Virus record (IMG/VR): IMGVR_UViG_2548876865_000003
Coordinates: 1-6,183 of that record
DNA from: a virus
Taxonomy: Duplodnaviria; Heunggongvirae; Uroviricota; Caudoviricetes
Length of the DNA: 6,183 bases
Strand: one strand, 5' to 3'
The notes beneath the pieces are model-generated. The model saw only the letters and a list, made by a program, of their open reading frames with translations. It did no database searches and had not been told where the DNA came from. Positions within the stretch are counted from its first letter, which is position 1. Each line of letters begins with the position of its first letter. The position numbers and the translations under genes are program-made. Below are positions 1-6,183 of the stretch, piece after piece.

Positions 1-18
1 GGATTCCGGGAGGAGTGA
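1..18 (+). CDS. 3' end of an upstream gene, probably tail assembly chaperone T (G-T product); only 5 codons plus stop are in the window
   Basis: Frame 1 reads gga ttc cgg gag gag tga, with the stop at 16-18 just before the H start at 22. Position immediately upstream of the tape-measure gene matches lambda T. Too short to confirm by sequence. Confidence 0.3.
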   Translation, partial: GFREE

Positions 19-21
19 GAT

Positions 22-2595
22 ATGTCCCAGCCGGTTGGTGATCTTGTTATTGACCTGAGTCTGGATGCGGTCCGTTTCGATGAGCAGATGAGCCGGGTAA
101 GGCGTCATTTTTCCGGACTGGATACTGACGCCAGAAAAACCGCCACTGTCGTTGAGCAGGGGCTGAGCCGCCAGGCGCTGGCTGCACAAAAAGCCGGGAT
201 TTCCGTCGGGCAGTATAAAGCGGCCATGCGAACCCTGCCCGCACAGTTTACGGATATCGCCACGCAGCTTGCCGGTGGTCAGAATCCCTGGCTCATCCTG
301 CTGCAACAGGGCGGTCAGGTGAAGGACGCCTTCGGCGGGATGATCCCCATGTTCAGGGGGCTTGCCGGAGCGATCACCCTGCCGATGGTCGGGGTCACCT
401 CGCTGGCGGTGGCGACAGGTGCGCTGGCGTATGCCTGGTACCAGGGGGATTCCACGCTTTCAGCGTTTAATAAAACCCTGGTTCTTTCCGGTAATCAGTC
501 CGGACTGACTGCCGATCGCATGCTGACGCTCTCCAGAGCCGGACAGGCCGCGGGGCTGACGTTTAACCAGGCGAGTGAGTCACTGGCAGCCCTGGTGAAT
601 GCCGGTGTGCGTGGTGGTGAACAGTTTGATGCCATCAACCAGAGTGTCGCGCGTTTTGCGTCTGCATCCGGTGTGGAGGTGGACAAGGTTGCTGAGGCTT
701 TCGGAAAACTGACCACCGACCCGACGTCGGGACTGATGGCGATGGCGCGCCAGTTCCGTAACGTGACGGCAGAGCAGATTGCGTATGTTGCGCAGCTGCA
801 GCGTTCCGGTGATGAGGCCGGGGCCTTACAGGCGGCGAACGATATCGCCACAAAAGGCTTTGATGAGCAGACCCGTCGCCTGAAAGAAAACATGGGGACG
901 CTGGAGACCTGGGCGGATAAAACAGGGAAGGCATTCAAATCGATGTGGGATGCCATTCTGGATATCGGTCGTCCGGAATCTTCTGCGGATATGCTCGCCA
1001 GTGCGCAGAAGGCATTTGATGAGGCGGATAAAAAATGGCAGTGGTACCAGGGCCGGAGCCAGCGCCGCGGTAAAACCGCCTCTTTCCGGGCCAACCTTCA
1101 GGGCGCATGGGATGACCGGGAAAATGCCCGTCTGGGTCTGGCAGCGGCAACGCTGCAGTCGGATATGGAAAAAGCCGGTGAACTGGCGGCAAGGGACAGG
1201 GCTGAGCGTGAGGCGTCACAGCTGAAGTATACCGGAGAGGCGCAGAAGGCGTATGAACGCCTGCAGACGCCACTGGAGAAATATACCGCCCGGCAGGAAG
1301 AACTGAACAAGGCACTGAAAGACGGGAAAATCCTGCAGGCGGATTACAACACGCTGATGGCGTCGGCAAAAAAGGATTATGAGTCGACGCAGAAAAAGCC
1401 GTCCGGTGTGAAGGTGTCAGCCGGTGAGCGCCAGGAAGACCGGGCACATGCAGCCATGCTGGCGCTTGAAACCGAGCTCAGGACGCTGGAAAAGCATGCC
1501 GGTGCGAATGAAAAAATCAGCCAGCAGCGCCGTGATTTATGGAAAGCGGAAAATCAGTATGCAGTCCTGAAAGAGGCCGCCACGAAACGGCAGTTATCTG
1601 AGCAGGAAAAATCCCTGCTGGCCCATGAGAAAGAAACGCTGGAGTACAGACGCCAGCTGGCTGAGCTGGGCGACAAGGTTGAACACCAGAAACGGCTGAA
1701 TGAACTGGCACAGCAGGCGGCGCGTTTTGAACAGCAGCAGAGCGCGAAGCAGGCAGCAATCAGCGCAAAAGCCCGCGGTCTCACCGACCGTCAGGCGCAG
1801 CGGGAGTCGGAAGAGCAGCGCCTTCGTGACGTGTATGGTGATAATCCGGATGCGCTGGCGAAGGCCACATCGGCACTGAAGAACACCTGGTCTGCTGAGG
1901 ACCAGCTGAGCGGTAACTGGATGGCGGGGCTGAAATCGGGCTGGAATGCGTGGGCGGAAAGTGCGACGGACAGTTTTTCGCAGGTTAAAAGCGCGGCCAC
2001 GCAGACCTTTGACGGTATCGCACAGAATATGGCGGCGATGCTGACCGGCAGTGAGCAGGACTGGCGCGGTTTTACCCGTTCCGTGCTCTCCATGCTGACA
2101 GAGATTTTTCTGAAACAGGCGATGGTGGGGATTGTCGGGAGTATCGGCAGCGCCATTGGCGGTGCTTTCGGTGGTGGTGCGTCTGCCTCCACGGGGACGG
2201 CCATTCAGGCTGCGGCGGCGAACTTCCATTTCGCGACCGGAGGATTTACGGGAACCGGCGGCAAATATGAGCCAGCGGGGATTGTCCACCGCGGGGAGTT
2301 TGTCTTCACGAAGGAGGCAACCAGCCGGATTGGTGTCGGCAACCTGTACCGCCTGATGCGGGGGTATGCGGAAGGTGGTTATGTGGGAGGTGAAGGGAGT
2401 CCGGCGCAGATGCGTCGCGCTGAGGGTATCCGGTTTGAGCAGAACAACAACGTGGTGATTCAGAACGACGGTATCAACGGCCAGGCGGGGCCGCAGCTGA
2501 TGAAGGCGGTGTATGACATGGCCCGCAAGGGGGCGCAGGATGAGATTCAGGCGCAGATGCGTGACGGTGGTGTATTTTCCGGAGGCAGGCGATGA
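22..2595 (+). CDS. H: Tail tape measure protein (lambda gpH-like), 857 aa
   Basis: Supplied ORF 22..2595. Strong Shine-Dalgarno GGGAGGAG at 9-16, about 5-7 nt before the ATG. Product is long, Ala/Gln/Glu/Arg-rich and helical in character, with a C-terminal Gly-rich hydrophobic segment (MVGIVGSIGSAIGGAFGGGASASTG...). Size (857 aa versus about 853 aa in lambda, from memory) and position before M-L-K-I-J fit gpH. N-terminus MSQPVGDLVIDLSLDAVRFDEQ is recognised as gpH-like from memory. Confidence 0.95.
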   Translation: MSQPVGDLVIDLSLDAVRFDEQMSRVRRHFSGLDTDARKTATVVEQGLSRQALAAQKAGISVGQYKAAMRTLPAQFTDIATQLAGGQNPWLILLQQGGQVKDAFGGMIPMFRGLAGAITLPMVGVTSLAVATGALAYAWYQGDSTLSAFNKTLVLSGNQSGLTADRMLTLSRAGQAAGLTFNQASESLAALVNAGVRGGEQFDAINQSVARFASASGVEVDKVAEAFGKLTTDPTSGLMAMARQFRNVTAEQIAYVAQLQRSGDEAGALQAANDIATKGFDEQTRRLKENMGTLETWADKTGKAFKSMWDAILDIGRPESSADMLASAQKAFDEADKKWQWYQGRSQRRGKTASFRANLQGAWDDRENARLGLAAATLQSDMEKAGELAARDRAEREASQLKYTGEAQKAYERLQTPLEKYTARQEELNKALKDGKILQADYNTLMASAKKDYESTQKKPSGVKVSAGERQEDRAHAAMLALETELRTLEKHAGANEKISQQRRDLWKAENQYAVLKEAATKRQLSEQEKSLLAHEKETLEYRRQLAELGDKVEHQKRLNELAQQAARFEQQQSAKQAAISAKARGLTDRQAQRESEEQRLRDVYGDNPDALAKATSALKNTWSAEDQLSGNWMAGLKSGWNAWAESATDSFSQVKSAATQTFDGIAQNMAAMLTGSEQDWRGFTRSVLSMLTEIFLKQAMVGIVGSIGSAIGGAFGGGASASTGTAIQAAAANFHFATGGFTGTGGKYEPAGIVHRGEFVFTKEATSRIGVGNLYRLMRGYAEGGYVGGEGSPAQMRRAEGIRFEQNNNVVIQNDGINGQAGPQLMKAVYDMARKGAQDEIQAQMRDGGVFSGGRR

Positions 2596-2921
2596 AAACA
2601 TTTCGCTGGAAAGTGAAGCCGGATATGGAGGTGAACTCGCAGCCGTCGGTGCGTGAAGTGCGCTTTGGTGACGGGTATTTGCAGCGGACGGCGGCGGGGC
2701 TGAATGCAGACCTGAAAACCTACAGGGTGACGCTTTCCGTGACCCGGGAGGAGGCCCGGCATCTGGAGGCGTTCCTGGCAGAGCACGGGGGCTGGAAGGC
2801 ATTTCTGTGGACACCGCCTTATGCATACCGGCAGATAAAGGTGACCTGTGCCGGATGGTCCGCGCGGGTCGGGATGTTGCGCGTTGAGTTCAGCGCGGAG
2901 TTTAAGCAGGTGGTGAACTGA
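2592..2921 (+). CDS. M: Minor tail protein M (lambda gpM-like), 109 aa
   Basis: Supplied ORF 2592..2921. ATG overlaps the H stop in an ATGA arrangement (2592-2595), indicating translational coupling. GGAGG lies about 8 nt upstream. Length of 109 aa equals lambda gpM, and the gene sits between H and L. Confidence 0.9.
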   Translation: MKTFRWKVKPDMEVNSQPSVREVRFGDGYLQRTAAGLNADLKTYRVTLSVTREEARHLEAFLAEHGGWKAFLWTPPYAYRQIKVTCAGWSARVGMLRVEFSAEFKQVVN

Positions 2922-3619
2922 TGCAGGATATTCACGAAGAAAGCCTGAAGGAGTCGGTGAAATCAGAGCAGTCACCGCGGGTGGTGCTCTGGGAAATCGA
3001 CCTGACGGTGCAGGGCGGTGAGCGGTATTTTTTCTGTAATGAGCTCAATGAAAAAGGGGAGCCGGTGACCTGGCAGGGGCGGAAGTATGAGGCGTACCCG
3101 ATTGAGGGCAGCGGCTTTGAGATGAACGGGAAGGGCAGCAGTGCCCGCCCGTCGCTGACGGTGTCGAATCTGTTCGGCCTGGTCACCGGGATGGCGGAGG
3201 ATTTGCAGAGCCTGGTGGGTGCCACGGTGGTCCGCCGCCGGGTGTATGCCCGTTTTCTGGATGCGGTGAATTTTGTGGCAGGCAATCCGGAGGCGGACCC
3301 GGAGCAGGAGCTGACGGACCGCTGGGTGGTGGAGCAGATGTCAGCGCTCACAGCCATGACGGCTTCGTTTGTGCTGGCGACACCGACGGAGACGGACGGG
3401 GCGCTGTTTCCCGGTCGCATCATGCTGGCGAACACCTGTATGTGGGATTACCGGGGAGAGGAGTGCGGTTTCACCGGCGGGGCAGTGGCGGATGAGTTCG
3501 ACAACCCCACCACGGATATCCGGAAGGACAGATGCAGTAAATGCATGCGCGGGTGTGAGCTGCGCGGCATGGTGGCTAATTTCGGCGGTTTCCTTTCCAT
3601 CAGTAAACTTTCGCAGTAA
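2921..3619 (+). CDS. L: Tail tip protein L (lambda gpL-like), 232 aa, with a Cys-rich C-terminal region
   Basis: Supplied ORF 2921..3619. Start overlaps the M stop as TGATG. AGGTGG at 2908-2913 lies 7 nt upstream. Length of 232 aa equals lambda gpL. The C-terminal part contains a cysteine cluster (TCMWDYRGEECGF ... DRCSKCMRGC) consistent with the reported Fe-S-binding gpL family. Confidence 0.93.
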   Translation: MQDIHEESLKESVKSEQSPRVVLWEIDLTVQGGERYFFCNELNEKGEPVTWQGRKYEAYPIEGSGFEMNGKGSSARPSLTVSNLFGLVTGMAEDLQSLVGATVVRRRVYARFLDAVNFVAGNPEADPEQELTDRWVVEQMSALTAMTASFVLATPTETDGALFPGRIMLANTCMWDYRGEECGFTGGAVADEFDNPTTDIRKDRCSKCMRGCELRGMVANFGGFLSISKLSQ

Positions 3620-3629
3620 ATCCCGGTTT

Positions 3630-4373
3630 ATGACACAGACTGAATCAGCGATTCTGGCGCATGCCCGGCGGTGTGCGTCAGCGGAGTCGTGCGGCTTCGT
3701 GATAAGCACCCCGGAGGGCGAACGGTACCAGCCCTGTGTGAATGTCTCCGCAGAGCCGGAGGCGTATTTTCGTATTGCACCGGAAGACTGGCTGCAGGCA
3801 CAGATGCAGGGGGAGATTGTGGCGCTGGTCCACAGTCATCCCGGTGGTCTGCCCTGGCTGAGCGAGGCGGACCGGCGGCTGCAGATAAAGAGTGCCCTGC
3901 CCTGGTGGCTGGTCTGCCGGGGAGACATTCACCGGTTCCGCTGTGTGCCACACCTGACGGGACGGCGCTTTGAGCACGGGGTGACGGACTGTTACACGCT
4001 GTTCCGGGATGCTTATCATCTGGCGGGGATAACGCTGCCGGATTTTCACCGCGAGGATGACTGGTGGCGCAACGGCCAGAACCTGTACCTGGACAATATG
4101 GAGGAAACGGGCTTTTACCGGGTGTCCCTGTCCCGTGCACAGGCGGGCGATATCCTGCTGTGCTGTTTTGGCGCATCGGTGCCGAATCATGCCGCCATTT
4201 ACTGCGGCAACGGTGAACTGCTTCACCATATACCGGAACAACTGAGTAAACGGGAGAGGTATTCTGAAAAATGGCAACGACGAACGCATTCTGTCTGGCG
4301 TCACCGCCACTGGTCCGCATCTGCCTTCACGGGGATTTACAACGATTTGGCCGCCGCCTCAGCCTGTATGTGA
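3630..4373 (+). CDS. K: Tail tip assembly protein K (lambda gpK-like), 247 aa, with an N-terminal JAB/MPN (JAMM) domain and a C-terminal NlpC/P60-like domain
   Basis: First ATG (3630) after the L stop (3617-3619), in the frame of supplied ORF 3369..4373. The upstream part of that ORF overlaps L in another frame and is rejected. JAMM motif H-S-H-x7-S-x2-D is encoded at 3831-3872 (HSHPGGLPWLSEAD), with a candidate upstream Glu in AESCGFV. NlpC/P60-like Cys at 3990-3992 (VTDCYTLF) and His at 4188-4190 (PNHAAIY). No clear SD precedes 3630, so the start is somewhat uncertain. Confidence 0.85.
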   Translation: MTQTESAILAHARRCASAESCGFVISTPEGERYQPCVNVSAEPEAYFRIAPEDWLQAQMQGEIVALVHSHPGGLPWLSEADRRLQIKSALPWWLVCRGDIHRFRCVPHLTGRRFEHGVTDCYTLFRDAYHLAGITLPDFHREDDWWRNGQNLYLDNMEETGFYRVSLSRAQAGDILLCCFGASVPNHAAIYCGNGELLHHIPEQLSKRERYSEKWQRRTHSVWRHRHWSASAFTGIYNDLAAASACM

Positions 4374-4951
4374 ACACGGCGGCGGAAGCCATCCGCGCCC
4401 TGTCACTGCAGGTGCCTGGGTTTCGCCGTCAGATGAACGAAGGCTGGTACCAGATACGTATTGCCGGTGAGGATACCGCGCCGGAGGCGGTGTATGCCCG
4501 TCTTCACGAATCGCTGCATGAGGGCGCGGTTATCCACATTGTGCCGCGACTGGCCGGTGCCGGAAAGGGCGGACTGCAGATTGTGCTGGGGGCAGCAGCC
4601 ATTGTGGGCTCTTTCTTCACTGCCGGGGCATCGATGGCGTTATGGGGTTCAGCCCTGGCTGCCGGTGGTTTTTCTGCCACCACGATGCTGTTCTCGCTGG
4701 GTGCCAGCATGATACTGGGTGGCGTGGCCCAGATGCTGGCCCCGAAGGCAAAGACGCCGGAGTACAAAAGCACGGATAACGGCAGACAGAACACGTATTT
4801 TTCCTCACTGGACAACATGATTGCCCAGGGCAACCCGATGCCGGTGCCTTACGGTGAAATGCTGGTTGGTTCACGACGGATATCCCAGGACATCAGCACC
4901 CGTGATGAAGGCGGAGACGGGAAGGTGGTGGTTATCGGGCGGCAGGGGTAA
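4271..4951 (+). CDS. I: Tail tip assembly protein I (lambda gpI-like), 226 aa, with an N-terminal ubiquitin-like (beta-grasp) region and a hydrophobic Gly/Ala-rich C-terminal half
   Basis: Supplied ORF 4271..4951. ATG lies inside the 3' end of K in a different frame, giving a 103-nt overlap, the same size I recall for lambda K/I. The I frame is closed by TGA at 4265-4267 immediately upstream. GGGAGAGG at 4251-4258 is a possible SD at long spacing. Product contains RLAGAGKGG followed by predicted hydrophobic helices. Confidence 0.85.
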   Translation: MATTNAFCLASPPLVRICLHGDLQRFGRRLSLYVNTAAEAIRALSLQVPGFRRQMNEGWYQIRIAGEDTAPEAVYARLHESLHEGAVIHIVPRLAGAGKGGLQIVLGAAAIVGSFFTAGASMALWGSALAAGGFSATTMLFSLGASMILGGVAQMLAPKAKTPEYKSTDNGRQNTYFSSLDNMIAQGNPMPVPYGEMLVGSRRISQDISTRDEGGDGKVVVIGRQG

Positions 4952-4956
4952 AGCAT

Positions 4957-4989
4957 AAAAAAATCCCGCAGAGTTGCGGAGCTGCGGGA
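4957..4989 (-). terminator. Intrinsic-terminator-like hairpin oriented for the minus strand
   Basis: Perfect 8-bp GC-rich inverted repeat TCCCGCAG (4964-4971) / CTGCGGGA (4982-4989) with a 10-nt loop. On the minus strand the stem is followed by seven U (complement of A7 at 4957-4963). On the + strand no U-tract follows (AATAAACG), so it is oriented to stop leftward transcription. Confidence 0.5.
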
Positions 4990-4997
4990 AATAAACG

Positions 4998-5117
4998 ATG
5001 AAGATTAACGTTATGGAGTTATTTTTCAGGCATCAAGAAAGTAACGCTGCGCAATTATCAGCGCCACAGGTAATTTGTGAAAATGTGAGGAAATTCAGAA
5101 ATTTTATTCCGTCATGA
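4998..5117 (+). CDS. Hypothetical small ORF (39 aa) within the I-J insertion; coding status uncertain
   Basis: ATG 4998 to TGA 5115-5117, translating to MKINVMELFFRHQESNAAQLSAPQVICENVRKFRNFIPS. Weak SD-like GGGAA at 4986-4990, which is partly buried in the upstream hairpin stem. The stop lies 2 nt before the + strand terminator hairpin. Below the length cutoff of the supplied ORF track. No recognisable family. Confidence 0.2.
   Translation: MKINVMELFFRHQESNAAQLSAPQVICENVRKFRNFIPS
5054..5081 (-). promoter_or_regulatory. Candidate sigma70-type promoter on the minus strand (TTCACA, 16-nt spacer, GATAAT)
   Basis: Minus-strand reading: -35 TTCACA (complement of 5076-5081), 16-nt spacer, -10 GATAAT (complement of 5054-5059). 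It would start leftward transcription near 5047, running into the minus-oriented terminator at 4989-4957. Found by eye only. Confidence 0.25.
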
Positions 5118-5118
5118 C

Positions 5119-5150
5119 ACAGGCACCTCCGGGGTGCCTGTTGTTTTTGT
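5119..5150 (+). terminator. Rho-independent terminator-like hairpin on the + strand, about 40 nt upstream of the J start
   Basis: 9-bp stem ACAGGCACC (5119-5127) / GGTGCCTGT (5133-5141) with a 5-nt loop TCCGG, followed directly by the T-rich tract TGTTTTTGT (5142-5150). On the minus strand no U-tract follows, so it is + oriented. Confidence 0.6.
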
Positions 5151-5191
5151 GCATAACCAGATTCAGACATCAGGCAGGACAGGGGGACAGA

Positions 5192-6183
5192 GTGGGTAAA
5201 GGCGGCGGCAAGGCGCACACGCCGGTTGAGGCGAGAGATAACCTGAAATCCACGCAGATGATGAGCGTGATTGATGCGATCGGCGAAGGACCCATTGAAG
5301 GTCCGGTTAACGGCCTGCAGAGTATTCTGGTGAACAAAACCCCGCTGACGGACACGGACGGTAACCCCGTGATACACGGTGTGACCGCCGTCTGGCGTGC
5401 CGGGGAGCAGGAGCAGACGCCACCGGAAGGCTTTGAGTCGTCCGGGGCGGAAACTGCGCTGGGCGTGGAGGTGACGAAGGCAAAGCCGGTGACGCGCACC
5501 ATCACGTCAGCGAACATTGACCGTCTGCGGGTGACCTTCGGGGTACAGTCACTGGTGGAGACCACCTCACAGGGTGACCGTAATCCGGCTTCTGTCCGCC
5601 TGCTGATTCAGCTTGAGCGTAACGGACACTGGGTGACGGAGAAGGATATCACCATTAACGGCAAGACCACCTCGCAGTTTCTGGCGTCGGTGATTCTGGA
5701 TAATCTGCCTCCCCGCCCCTTTAACATCCGGATGGTCAGGGAGACGGCGGACAGCACCACGGACCAGCTGCAGAATAAGACGCTGTGGTCGTCATACACC
5801 GAAATCATCGATGTGAAACAGTGCTACCCGAACACGGCCATTGTGGGGCTGCAGGTGGATGCGGAGCAGTTCGGTGGTCAGCAGATGACGGTGAACTACC
5901 ATATCCGCGGTCGCATCATTCAGGTGCCGTCAAACTACGACCCGGAAAAACGCACGTACAGCGGTATCTGGGACGGGAGTCTGAAACCGGCATACAGCAA
6001 TAACCCGGCCTGGTGCCTGTGGGACATGCTGACGCACCCGCGCTACGGGATGGGAAAACGCCTGGGGGCAGCGGATGTGGACAAGTGGGCACTGTATGCC
6101 ATCGGGCAGTACTGCGACCAGAGTGTTCCGGATGGTTTCGGGGGAACAGAGCCGCGGATGACCTTTAATGCGTACCTGTCACA
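5192..6183 (+). CDS. J: Host specificity protein / central tail fibre J (lambda gpJ-like), N-terminal ~330 codons, truncated by the window end
   Basis: Open frame from GTG 5192 to the window end with no stop, which is why it is absent from the supplied track. Translation VGKGGGKAHTPVEARDNLKSTQMMSVIDAIGEGPIEGPV ... NKTLWSSYTEIIDVKQCYPNTA ... WCLWDMLTHPRYGMGKRLGAADVDKWALY ... DQSVPDGFGGTEPR matches the lambda gpJ N-terminal region as I recall it. Purine-rich AGGGGGA at 5181-5187 serves as SD. An in-frame ATG at 5114 is an alternative start. Confidence 0.9.
   Translation, partial: MGKGGGKAHTPVEARDNLKSTQMMSVIDAIGEGPIEGPVNGLQSILVNKTPLTDTDGNPVIHGVTAVWRAGEQEQTPPEGFESSGAETALGVEVTKAKPVTRTITSANIDRLRVTFGVQSLVETTSQGDRNPASVRLLIQLERNGHWVTEKDITINGKTTSQFLASVILDNLPPRPFNIRMVRETADSTTDQLQNKTLWSSYTEIIDVKQCYPNTAIVGLQVDAEQFGGQQMTVNYHIRGRIIQVPSNYDPEKRTYSGIWDGSLKPAYSNNPAWCLWDMLTHPRYGMGKRLGAADVDKWALYAIGQYCDQSVPDGFGGTEPRMTFNAYLS

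Follow-up and report, generated by a model that had tools for sequence, protein, structure and literature searches.

A probable small RNA gene of the PasB/EcOnc22-24 family at the I-J tail gene junction of a lambdoid phage sequence

The DNA analyzed here is a stretch of 6,183 nucleotides from a virus of the class Caudoviricetes (IMG/VR record IMGVR_UViG_2548876865_000003, positions 1 to 6,183; hereafter, the window), the plus strand of which carries the lambda-like tail genes H, M, L, K, I, and J. The stop codon of I (TAA, 4949-4951) and the start codon of J (GTG, 5192) enclose a spacer of 240 bp (4952-5191). We conclude that the payload of this spacer is very probably a single small RNA (sRNA) gene of approximately 91 nt, which is encoded on the minus strand in antisense orientation to the tail operon and belongs to the family described as PasB in enteropathogenic Escherichia coli (EPEC) and as EcOnc22, EcOnc23, and EcOnc24 in enterohemorrhagic E. 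coli (EHEC). The sRNA of the window is a new allele of this described family and not a new kind of element. An earlier reading of the window, which was made from the sequence alone (the sequence-only reading), regarded the content of the spacer as unrecognized. This view is not sustained because the element has been published under the above names, even though it is absent from Rfam and from RefSeq annotations. What recurs in lambdoid tail operons as an "empty" gap of 240 bp is, thus, an sRNA gene that is missing from both resources. The parts of the predicted gene are as follows:

4957..5047, minus strand: sRNA gene of the PasB/EcOnc22 family, predicted length of approximately 91 nt (covariance model, identity to EcOnc22 and PasB, homologous position)
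4957..4989, minus strand: intrinsic terminator of the sRNA (terminator scan; minimum free energy [MFE] fold; stem invariant in 24 variants)
4998..5020, minus strand: candidate seed region, conserved and predicted to be single-stranded, consisting of UUAAUCUUCAU (complementary to 4998-5008) and AACUCC (complementary to 5015-5020)
5054..5081, minus strand: predicted sigma-70 promoter of the sRNA, with the -35 element TTCACA (5081..5076), a 16-bp spacer, and the -10 element GATAAT (5059..5054)
5084..5099, no strand assigned: CRP-like dyad TGTGA-N6-TCAGA (TCTGA-N6-TCACA on the sRNA strand), invariant, with its center approximately 44.5 bp upstream of the predicted start

A covariance model of the family (R1) was built from 11 copies in relatives, including the EcOnc22 copy and PasB, and the window was left out. 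R1 matched the window at 5047..4957 on the minus strand, end to end (model positions 1-96), with a score of 81 bits (E=3e-14), and the next best match reached 9.9 bits. R1 gave no match in lambda. The predicted sRNA was 93.5% identical to the EcOnc22 copy of VT1-Sakai, and 72.7% identical to PasB of E2348/69. Its identity was 97.8% to the copy nearest to J in an array of four that is present in genomes of Shiga toxin-producing E. coli O91, O104:H21, and O113:H21. Along its entire length, the spacer aligned with those between I and J in E2348/69 prophage PP6 and VT1-Sakai. The window gene shares with the members of the family its location in the I-J spacer, the antisense strand, and a terminator stem followed by a U tract, and its sequence is similar to those of the mapped members.

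PasB is an 83-nt Hfq-dependent sRNA of EPEC E2348/69 (NC_011601.1, 1466343..1466261, minus strand) located between E2348C_1436 and E2348C_1437 (PMC8550237, Table S6). In RefSeq, these two genes are those of a tail assembly protein (I) and gpJ in prophage PP6, and the spacer between them is also 240 bp. PasB was found by RIL-seq (ligation and sequencing of interacting RNAs); Northern blotting was consistent with the 83 nt annotated from read coverage, and the stability of the RNA was Hfq-dependent (PMC8550237). Its log2 fold change in an hfq deletion was -6.8 and -2.4, and 37 RIL-seq interactions were reported (PMC8550237). In the part of this source available to us, the pasA-E2348C_0689 intergenic RNA is one of the RIL-seq partners of PasB, with 19 chimeras.

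EcOnc22, EcOnc23, and EcOnc24 are listed, in the accessible part of Table S2 of PMC4104026, as peaks of Hfq CRAC (cross-linking followed by cDNA analysis) on the plus strand of Sakai prophages Sp15, Sp14, and Sp11, respectively. On Northern blots, EcOnc22 was approximately 85 nt and was destabilized without hfq (PMC4104026). The positions of EcOnc22-24 are the I-J spacers of Sp15, Sp14, and Sp11, in which the tail genes are on the minus strand, so that EcOnc22-24 are antisense. The published coordinates (NC_002695.1) are approximately 128 nt off the sRNA in NC_002695.2, and their literal reading leads to the wrong part of the spacer. The position was settled by the sequence of the Northern probe and not by the coordinates: in each of the three prophages, the plus-strand sequence of Sakai to which a 23-nt core of the probe is complementary falls within the predicted sRNA. 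PasB and EcOnc22-24 are thus one kind of gene, located at one and the same junction. The parts of Tree et al. 2014, Pearl Mizrahi et al. 2021, and Zhu et al. 2026 available to us contain no cross-reference that equates them, and the present analysis ties together two names that have been used separately in the EHEC and EPEC literature. Rfam did not lead to this identification. Neither the window, scanned in E-value mode (E up to 1), nor a relative with four modules matched any Rfam family, and the chance snoRNA-like and GcvB-like matches were far below threshold.

The predicted sRNA ends in a terminator with the stem UCCCGCAG/CUGCGGGA (4964-4971/4982-4989), a 10-nt loop, and a run of seven U residues (U7; 4963..4957), which ends 5 nt short of the I stop codon. 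The stem has 8 bp in the MFE fold of the sRNA (-20 kcal/mol, z=-3.0), and its 7-bp core, CCCGCAG/CUGCGGG, is the consensus. Among 24 distinct variants, the terminator was the only common structure and it never varied. The U-rich CGUUUAUUU precedes the terminator, as in a typical Hfq-binding 3' module. In the alignment of these variants, UUAAUCUUCAU and AACUCC were conserved islands with divergent flanks; Zhu et al. 2026 (bioRxiv 10.64898/2026.05.13.724894) placed the seed of PasB just upstream of the terminator. The dyad, the -10 element, and the terminator are conserved, while the sRNA body diverges to approximately 62-76% identity. The predicted start is G5047 or A5048, with a 5' end that reads GCGUUAC...; this end was derived from the -10 element and is uncertain by approximately 15 nt, and the 3' end falls within the U7 tract. 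With the 128-nt offset applied, the EcOnc22 CRAC peak begins 6 nt after the predicted start. An Hfq-dependent RNA of approximately 83-85 nt is a finding on the homologues only, and the window prediction is approximately 91 nt. The layout of the predicted RNA, namely, an unstructured seed, a U-rich stretch, a hairpin, and a U tail, is that of a typical Hfq-dependent trans-acting sRNA.

The predicted promoter, with 10 of 12 consensus matches, was the best sigma-70-like site detected by a scan of the 6.2-kb window. Among 48 unique promoter variants, an nATAAT -10 box was conserved at a fixed spacing in most, and the -35 element was usually poor (TTCCGG, TTCTGC). A 24-bp stretch that includes the -35 TTCACA separates the dyad from the -10 element. 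The consensus binding site of CRP is TGTGA-N6-TCACA. The dyad agrees with it at 9 of the 10 core bases, the promoter-proximal half being perfect, and is the sole site in the window to match TGTGA-N6-TCACA with up to one mismatch (0.21 expected per 6.2 kb). Two sets of relatives were compared: 117 loci were collected through a 25-mer in the conserved block, and, against the resulting bias, 80 loci were collected through the N terminus of J alone. The dyad was exact and at a fixed distance in all 161 modules of the 25-mer-anchored set. In the J-anchored set, it was exact in 68 of 75 modules, ending 35-37 nt before model position 1, and the seven modules without it had lost the promoter to an inserted sodC gene. 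Spf is repressed by CRP, and Dulbecco's modified Eagle medium (DMEM) contains glucose. PasB was more abundant in overnight lysogeny broth (LB) than in DMEM, and Spf showed the opposite in the same data (PMC8550237). We consider it possible, but far from assured, that the sRNA promoter is under the control of cyclic AMP (cAMP)-CRP via the dyad upstream of the weak -35 element.

Sequences matching the spacer were present in 147 phage records, nearly all of which were Shiga toxin-converting or other lambdoid coliphages (best identity 87.9%, VT1-Sakai), and, among 5,426 complete E. coli genomes, in at least 723, each of which had 1-9 such places. In E. coli, the matches were always between a tail assembly gene and J and had no annotated feature in RefSeq. 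In line with the insertion that the sequence-only reading proposed, the 240-bp spacer is absent from lambda; it is present in lambdoid coliphages and E. coli prophages. In the J-anchored set, 76 of the 80 loci had exactly one R1 match, which was antisense and just upstream of J in all 76. The best complete E. coli genome was 92.9% identical across the window and 91.7% identical across the spacer. Because identity to the best match is only this high, the window presumably represents a lambdoid phage or prophage lineage that is absent from the 5,426 complete genomes or that comes from a close relative of E. coli. When the conserved 25-mer was searched against one genome per species, the sole match was in a 460-bp contig labeled as the marine bacterium Parendozoicomonas haliclonae (L123, NZ_FWPT01000051.1). 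This contig is most likely contamination from E. coli or a phage and has no bearing on the distribution outside E. coli.

The number of sRNA modules per I-J spacer varied among the relatives: one module was present in 90 loci, two in 7, three in 2, and four in 8. Arrays were found, for example, in L053 (10100-11040; four modules), L048 (three), and L004 (two), and also in H74-H83 from complete E. coli genomes. A dyad, a -10 box, a body, and a terminator are present in every module of an array, and the candidate seeds vary from one module to the next; among the cassettes, there are bodies that contain UUAAUCUUCAU, UUAAGGUGACUAUUCG, or GUUAGUCAACAUCG. The 4-module array spans approximately 900 bp, is unannotated, and was covered to at least 80% in 67 complete E. 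coli genomes. Its modules scored 89, 82, 67, and 20 bits with the family model, and the window copy is closest to the J-proximal module. The available part of Zhu et al. (10.64898/2026.05.13.724894) reports no tandem PasB copies and a minimum distance of 28 kb between copies. Their search was performed with blastn using the E2348/69 sequence, and matches covering >75% of the query were kept (10.64898/2026.05.13.724894); therefore, divergent neighboring modules probably fell outside it. The promoter and tandem copies of PasB are not described in the accessible parts of Pearl Mizrahi et al. 2021 or Zhu et al. 2026. Within the sources available, three points appear to be unreported: that the EHEC and EPEC names are equivalent, that an operator-like dyad is present, and that modules occur in tandem arrays of 1-4.

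A separate observation on the same junction concerns a Cu/Zn superoxide dismutase gene (sodC; Pfam Sod_Cu, E=4e-32), which was present in the opposite orientation in 7 of the 80 J-anchored relatives (L139:650-1500, L148, L187, L198, L203, L204, and L207), with a GC-rich hairpin behind it. In these loci, sodC replaces the sRNA promoter and dyad and leaves a promoterless sRNA remnant that scores 53 bits with the family model. Because sodC was inserted there in 7 of 80 relatives, the I-J junction appears to be a recurrent insertion site.

The tandem arrays are an observation; their common control by CRP and functional diversification are proposals. We tentatively speculate that, in this phage lineage, the I-J junction is a dedicated, expandable landing pad for sRNA cassettes of approximately 150-160 bp, which may undergo tandem duplication (1-4 copies), swap their pairing regions, and all answer to cAMP-CRP. 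Such a cassette would comprise a CRP-like operator, a weak -35 element, a -10 element, an RNA body of approximately 90-100 nt, and a terminator, and the window may then, with the same reserve, represent the single-cassette form. If this is true, a prophage would deliver a set of different regulators that are all tied to the cAMP-CRP state of the host. The conserved dyad, the seed-swapped tandem cassettes, and the displacement of the promoter by sodC offer handles on the wiring of prophages into host regulation. A specialist in prophage sRNAs would find nothing surprising here.

The remaining features of the spacer and the genes that flank it are as follows:

4271..4951, plus strand: tail assembly gene I (Pfam PF06805 Lambda_tail_I, E=2e-16; in the list of open reading frames [ORFs]; aligns with lambda I)
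4998..5117, plus strand: 39-codon ORF, judged to be non-genic (start lost or stop shifted among relatives; no match in Pfam or PHROGs)
5119..5150, plus strand: terminator-like hairpin with a 10-bp stem and a loop of 3 (hairpin 5119-5141, then TTGTTTTTG; fold -23.2 kcal/mol)
5163..5176, plus strand: degenerate pair of a 7-nt repeat, TCAGACA TCAGGCA, between the plus-strand hairpin and the J ribosome-binding site
5192..6183, plus strand: start of tail tip/host specificity gene J, which continues past the end of the window (GTG start; Pfam PF24801 FNIII-A_GpJ, E=2e-41; aligns with the N terminus of lambda J)

The names of the tail genes were taken from the aligned annotation of VT1-Sakai, and the Pfam check was limited to I and J. 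A terminator scan found three terminator-like sites in 4700-5500 (0.7 expected); in the ranking of the whole window, the plus-strand hairpin was first and the minus-strand hairpin third. The sequence-only reading saw these two hairpins as the brackets of one unit. Both are present and in opposite orientations; the left one is the terminator of the sRNA, and the right one belongs to the J side of the junction. The plus-strand hairpin occurs once per spacer, after the last module and adjoining J, whatever the number of modules (1-4). The 60-bp I-J gap of lambda (L129:746-805; lambda 15445-15504) can also fold into a hairpin rich in G+C, AAACCGCC-UGCG-GGCGGUUU, with U's behind it (-21 kcal/mol, z=-2.8); this hairpin is positionally analogous to the right-hand hairpin of the window and was not flagged by the simple terminator scan. 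Because a single copy accompanies two to four modules and an analogous hairpin is present in lambda without the sRNA, the right-hand hairpin appears to be a J-proximal junction element that lies outside the sRNA module. Going by general lambda biology, unmodified polymerase may halt at this hairpin, and Q-modified polymerase may continue past it. A divergent second sRNA ending at this hairpin was also considered and rejected: the scan found no plus-strand promoter, and by eye there were only weak candidates, which would give RNAs of 40-60 nt. In Table S2 of Tree et al. (PMC4104026), the entries up to EcOnc33 and parts of those for EcOnc34-43 show no sense-strand Hfq peak.

Based on these results, we propose that transcription of the sRNA starts at a sigma-70 promoter of its own, runs leftwards in antisense orientation to the tail operon, and would end at its own terminator, which abuts the I stop codon. 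The homologues are made independently of late transcription in the lysogen, bind Hfq and need it for their stability, and pair in trans with mRNAs of the host and the accessory genome. The window sRNA may be expected to behave in the same manner in view of its 93.5% identity to EcOnc22 and of the intact state of its promoter, terminator, and conserved islands. As suggested by conservation, pairing would occur via the unstructured UUAAUCUUCAU just upstream of the terminator and/or via AACUCC, which resembles an anti-Shine-Dalgarno sequence. We suggest with less assurance that the promoter is controlled through the dyad TCTGA-N6-TCACA upstream of the weak -35 element, most likely by cAMP-CRP. 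The plus-strand hairpin at J would be a separate element of the junction, which, judging from lambda biology, stops unmodified polymerase and is passed by Q-modified polymerase.

Several points weigh against this interpretation. All transcript data come from homologues in other strains, and the window allele is known from its sequence alone. The 5' end of the sRNA is a prediction, and the annotated 5' end of PasB (E2348/69, read coverage) is 14 nt downstream of the equivalent predicted start. Covariation supports no RNA structure among the 24 variants, in which the stem of the terminator never changes and no other part has a consistent fold; because the shared terminator is invariant, covariation is uninformative either way. 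Regarding control by CRP, the dyad is centered at approximately -44.5, whereas -41.5 or -61.5 is canonical for promoters that CRP activates, and the difference between LB and DMEM could equally reflect the growth phase, oxygen, or RpoS. A 2021 review gives the targets of EcOnc22-24 as unknown, and no family member has a validated target.

The sRNA may instead act mainly in cis, by forming an antisense duplex with the late transcript that results in cleavage, uncoupling, or the tuning of J expression. The place and orientation of the gene are constant, antisense and directly upstream of J in all 76 matches of the J-anchored sample, tandem arrays remain at the I-J junction, and, between I and J, the late transcript contains 91 nt that are perfectly complementary to the sRNA. 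Since lytic late mRNA carries this complement, induction should give a long duplex or titrate the sRNA. However, the duplex ends approximately 145 nt before the J start, clear of the coding sequences of I and J and of the J ribosome-binding site, and lambda assembles its tails without the element. Moreover, the homologues are Hfq-bound RNAs with many trans partners in uninduced cultures, and sodC replaces the promoter in some relatives with no sign of another change in the tail module. We consider a mainly cis-acting role to be unlikely. This reading, which includes the converse case of an abundant late transcript that would mop up the sRNA and switch off its trans effects, is compatible with trans action.

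Readings that place a protein in the spacer depend on the ORF at 4998-5117. In a type I toxin-antitoxin system, this ORF would encode the toxin, and the antisense RNA would cover its ribosome-binding site and start; the ATG at 4998 and the upstream GGGA do fall within the antisense RNA. However, no conserved small toxin ORF lies under the RNA. Among the 117 related loci, several groups have ACG or AAG at the position of the start codon, the ORF stops after 10 to 54 codons in different frames, and only 22 codons are encoded in E2348/69, the strain in which PasB was defined. The peptide, which is not hydrophobic, matched no family in Pfam or PHROGs, the scan found no plus-strand promoter, and nucleotides are conserved with no codon-position pattern, whole blocks being invariant. 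The ORF overlaps the seed and promoter of the sRNA, and its conserved-looking MKIN start is the complement of the sRNA seed. We regard a toxin-antitoxin system as highly improbable. The same evidence applies equally to a protein-coding moron, in which the 39-aa ORF closed by the plus-strand terminator would encode a small late or lysogenic-conversion protein. A hypothetical protein is annotated there in some phage records, the stop codon is 2 nt before the plus-strand hairpin, and the window and close VT1-Sakai-type copies retain the ORF intact, with 39 aa; however, the ORF survives only in this nearly identical group of variants, so that its persistence needs no selection, and we find this explanation scarcely credible. 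The ORF at 4998-5117 was rejected as a gene or toxin because of its non-conservation and the lack of a family match. The mosaic nature of the junction, with its varied J-proximal segments, sRNA bodies, and sodC, might also suggest inert junk or a recombination scar between tail-gene modules with chance hairpins. We attach next to no probability to this possibility: the promoter, dyad, and terminator are invariant amid diverging neighboring bases, and transcripts from homologous spacers were detected twice, independently, data that already refute it.

An sRNA gene of the PasB/EcOnc22-24 family, our preferred explanation, accommodates most of what the sequence-only reading had noted. It had given a gap of approximately 60 bp for lambda, and the gap measures 60 bp (15445-15504; I stops at 15444 and J starts at 15505) against 240 bp in the window, which is approximately 180 bp longer in the alignment. 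The G+C content of the core at 4991-5120, given as approximately 36%, was 36.2% (59.0% in the whole window, 60.2% in I, and 59.3% in the part of J); this core is the region of lowest G+C, the lowest 130-bp value being 35.4% (start 4988) and the minimum outside the spacer 47.7%. The small ORF (4998-5117, plus strand) and the promoter-like element (5081..5054, minus strand) that it mentioned are both present. Its description of a compositionally foreign, self-terminated, moron-like unit agrees with an insertion relative to lambda that has a predicted promoter and terminator of its own and 36.2% G+C, and a regulatory RNA, which it named as a possible cargo, fits with the expression of the homologues as Hfq-dependent sRNAs in uninduced EHEC and EPEC.

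The moron concept for lambdoid phages is attributed to Juhala et al. 2000, as cited in the available part of PMC4104026. Similar to morons, the unit in the window is extra DNA between genes that are adjacent in lambda, with its own predicted promoter and terminator and a deviant G+C content. The homologues were detected in uninduced cultures, and, by analogy, the window unit may also show moron-like expression from the prophage. In contrast to typical morons, its cargo is a non-coding RNA that points against the late operon. The window and EcOnc22-24 of E. coli O157:H7 Sakai (PMC4104026) share the I-J locus, antisense strand, promoter, dyad, terminator, and plus-strand hairpin. The window allele differs from EcOnc22 at six points, including U-to-C in the 5' U-run, UUUAUUU for UUCUCU upstream of the terminator, and a loop that is 1 nt shorter. 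PasB (PMC8550237) and the window share the position, strand, 240-bp spacer, terminator stem, UUAAUCUUCAU/AACUCC islands, and promoter architecture, whereas the two RNAs diverge in their middle part and 6 nt are inserted in PasB (72.7% identity). No copy identical to the window was present in the 5,426 complete E. coli genomes, the best spacer match being 91.7%.

Other sRNAs of lambdoid prophages were considered as candidates and rejected. AgvB/AsxR and HnrS (EcOnc10-12) resemble the window family in being short Hfq-associated RNAs with intrinsic terminators; as they are carried by several prophages, a genome often has more than one copy. However, the known sRNA-bearing moron site of AgvB/AsxR is downstream of PR' and not at the I-J junction, and the window did not match Rfam RF02702 or RF02703. 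HnrS (66 nt) occurs in up to nine copies per genome, as does the spacer; EcOnc10 and EcOnc12 lie between the Rz endopeptidase gene and the DNase/terminase genes in Sp12 and Sp9. The lambdoid-prophage sRNA svsR sits at the 3' end of cI.

The segment between the plus-strand hairpin and J also varies among relatives. The 7-nt unit CAGACAT is present in 1-4 copies at the same place, and the window has two imperfect copies. In L132 (1300-1500), a normal PasB-type module is followed by a different J-proximal segment of approximately 200 bp with a strong hairpin, AAAACCCCGGTATC...GATACCGGGGTTT, and the J start ATGGGAAAAGG. L138, L140, L144, and L166 match L132 in their R1 score and offset; in the loci of this type (5 of the 80 J-anchored relatives), the R1 match is approximately 100 bp further from J, and L132 itself has a different plus-strand hairpin there, which represents further mosaicism at the junction.

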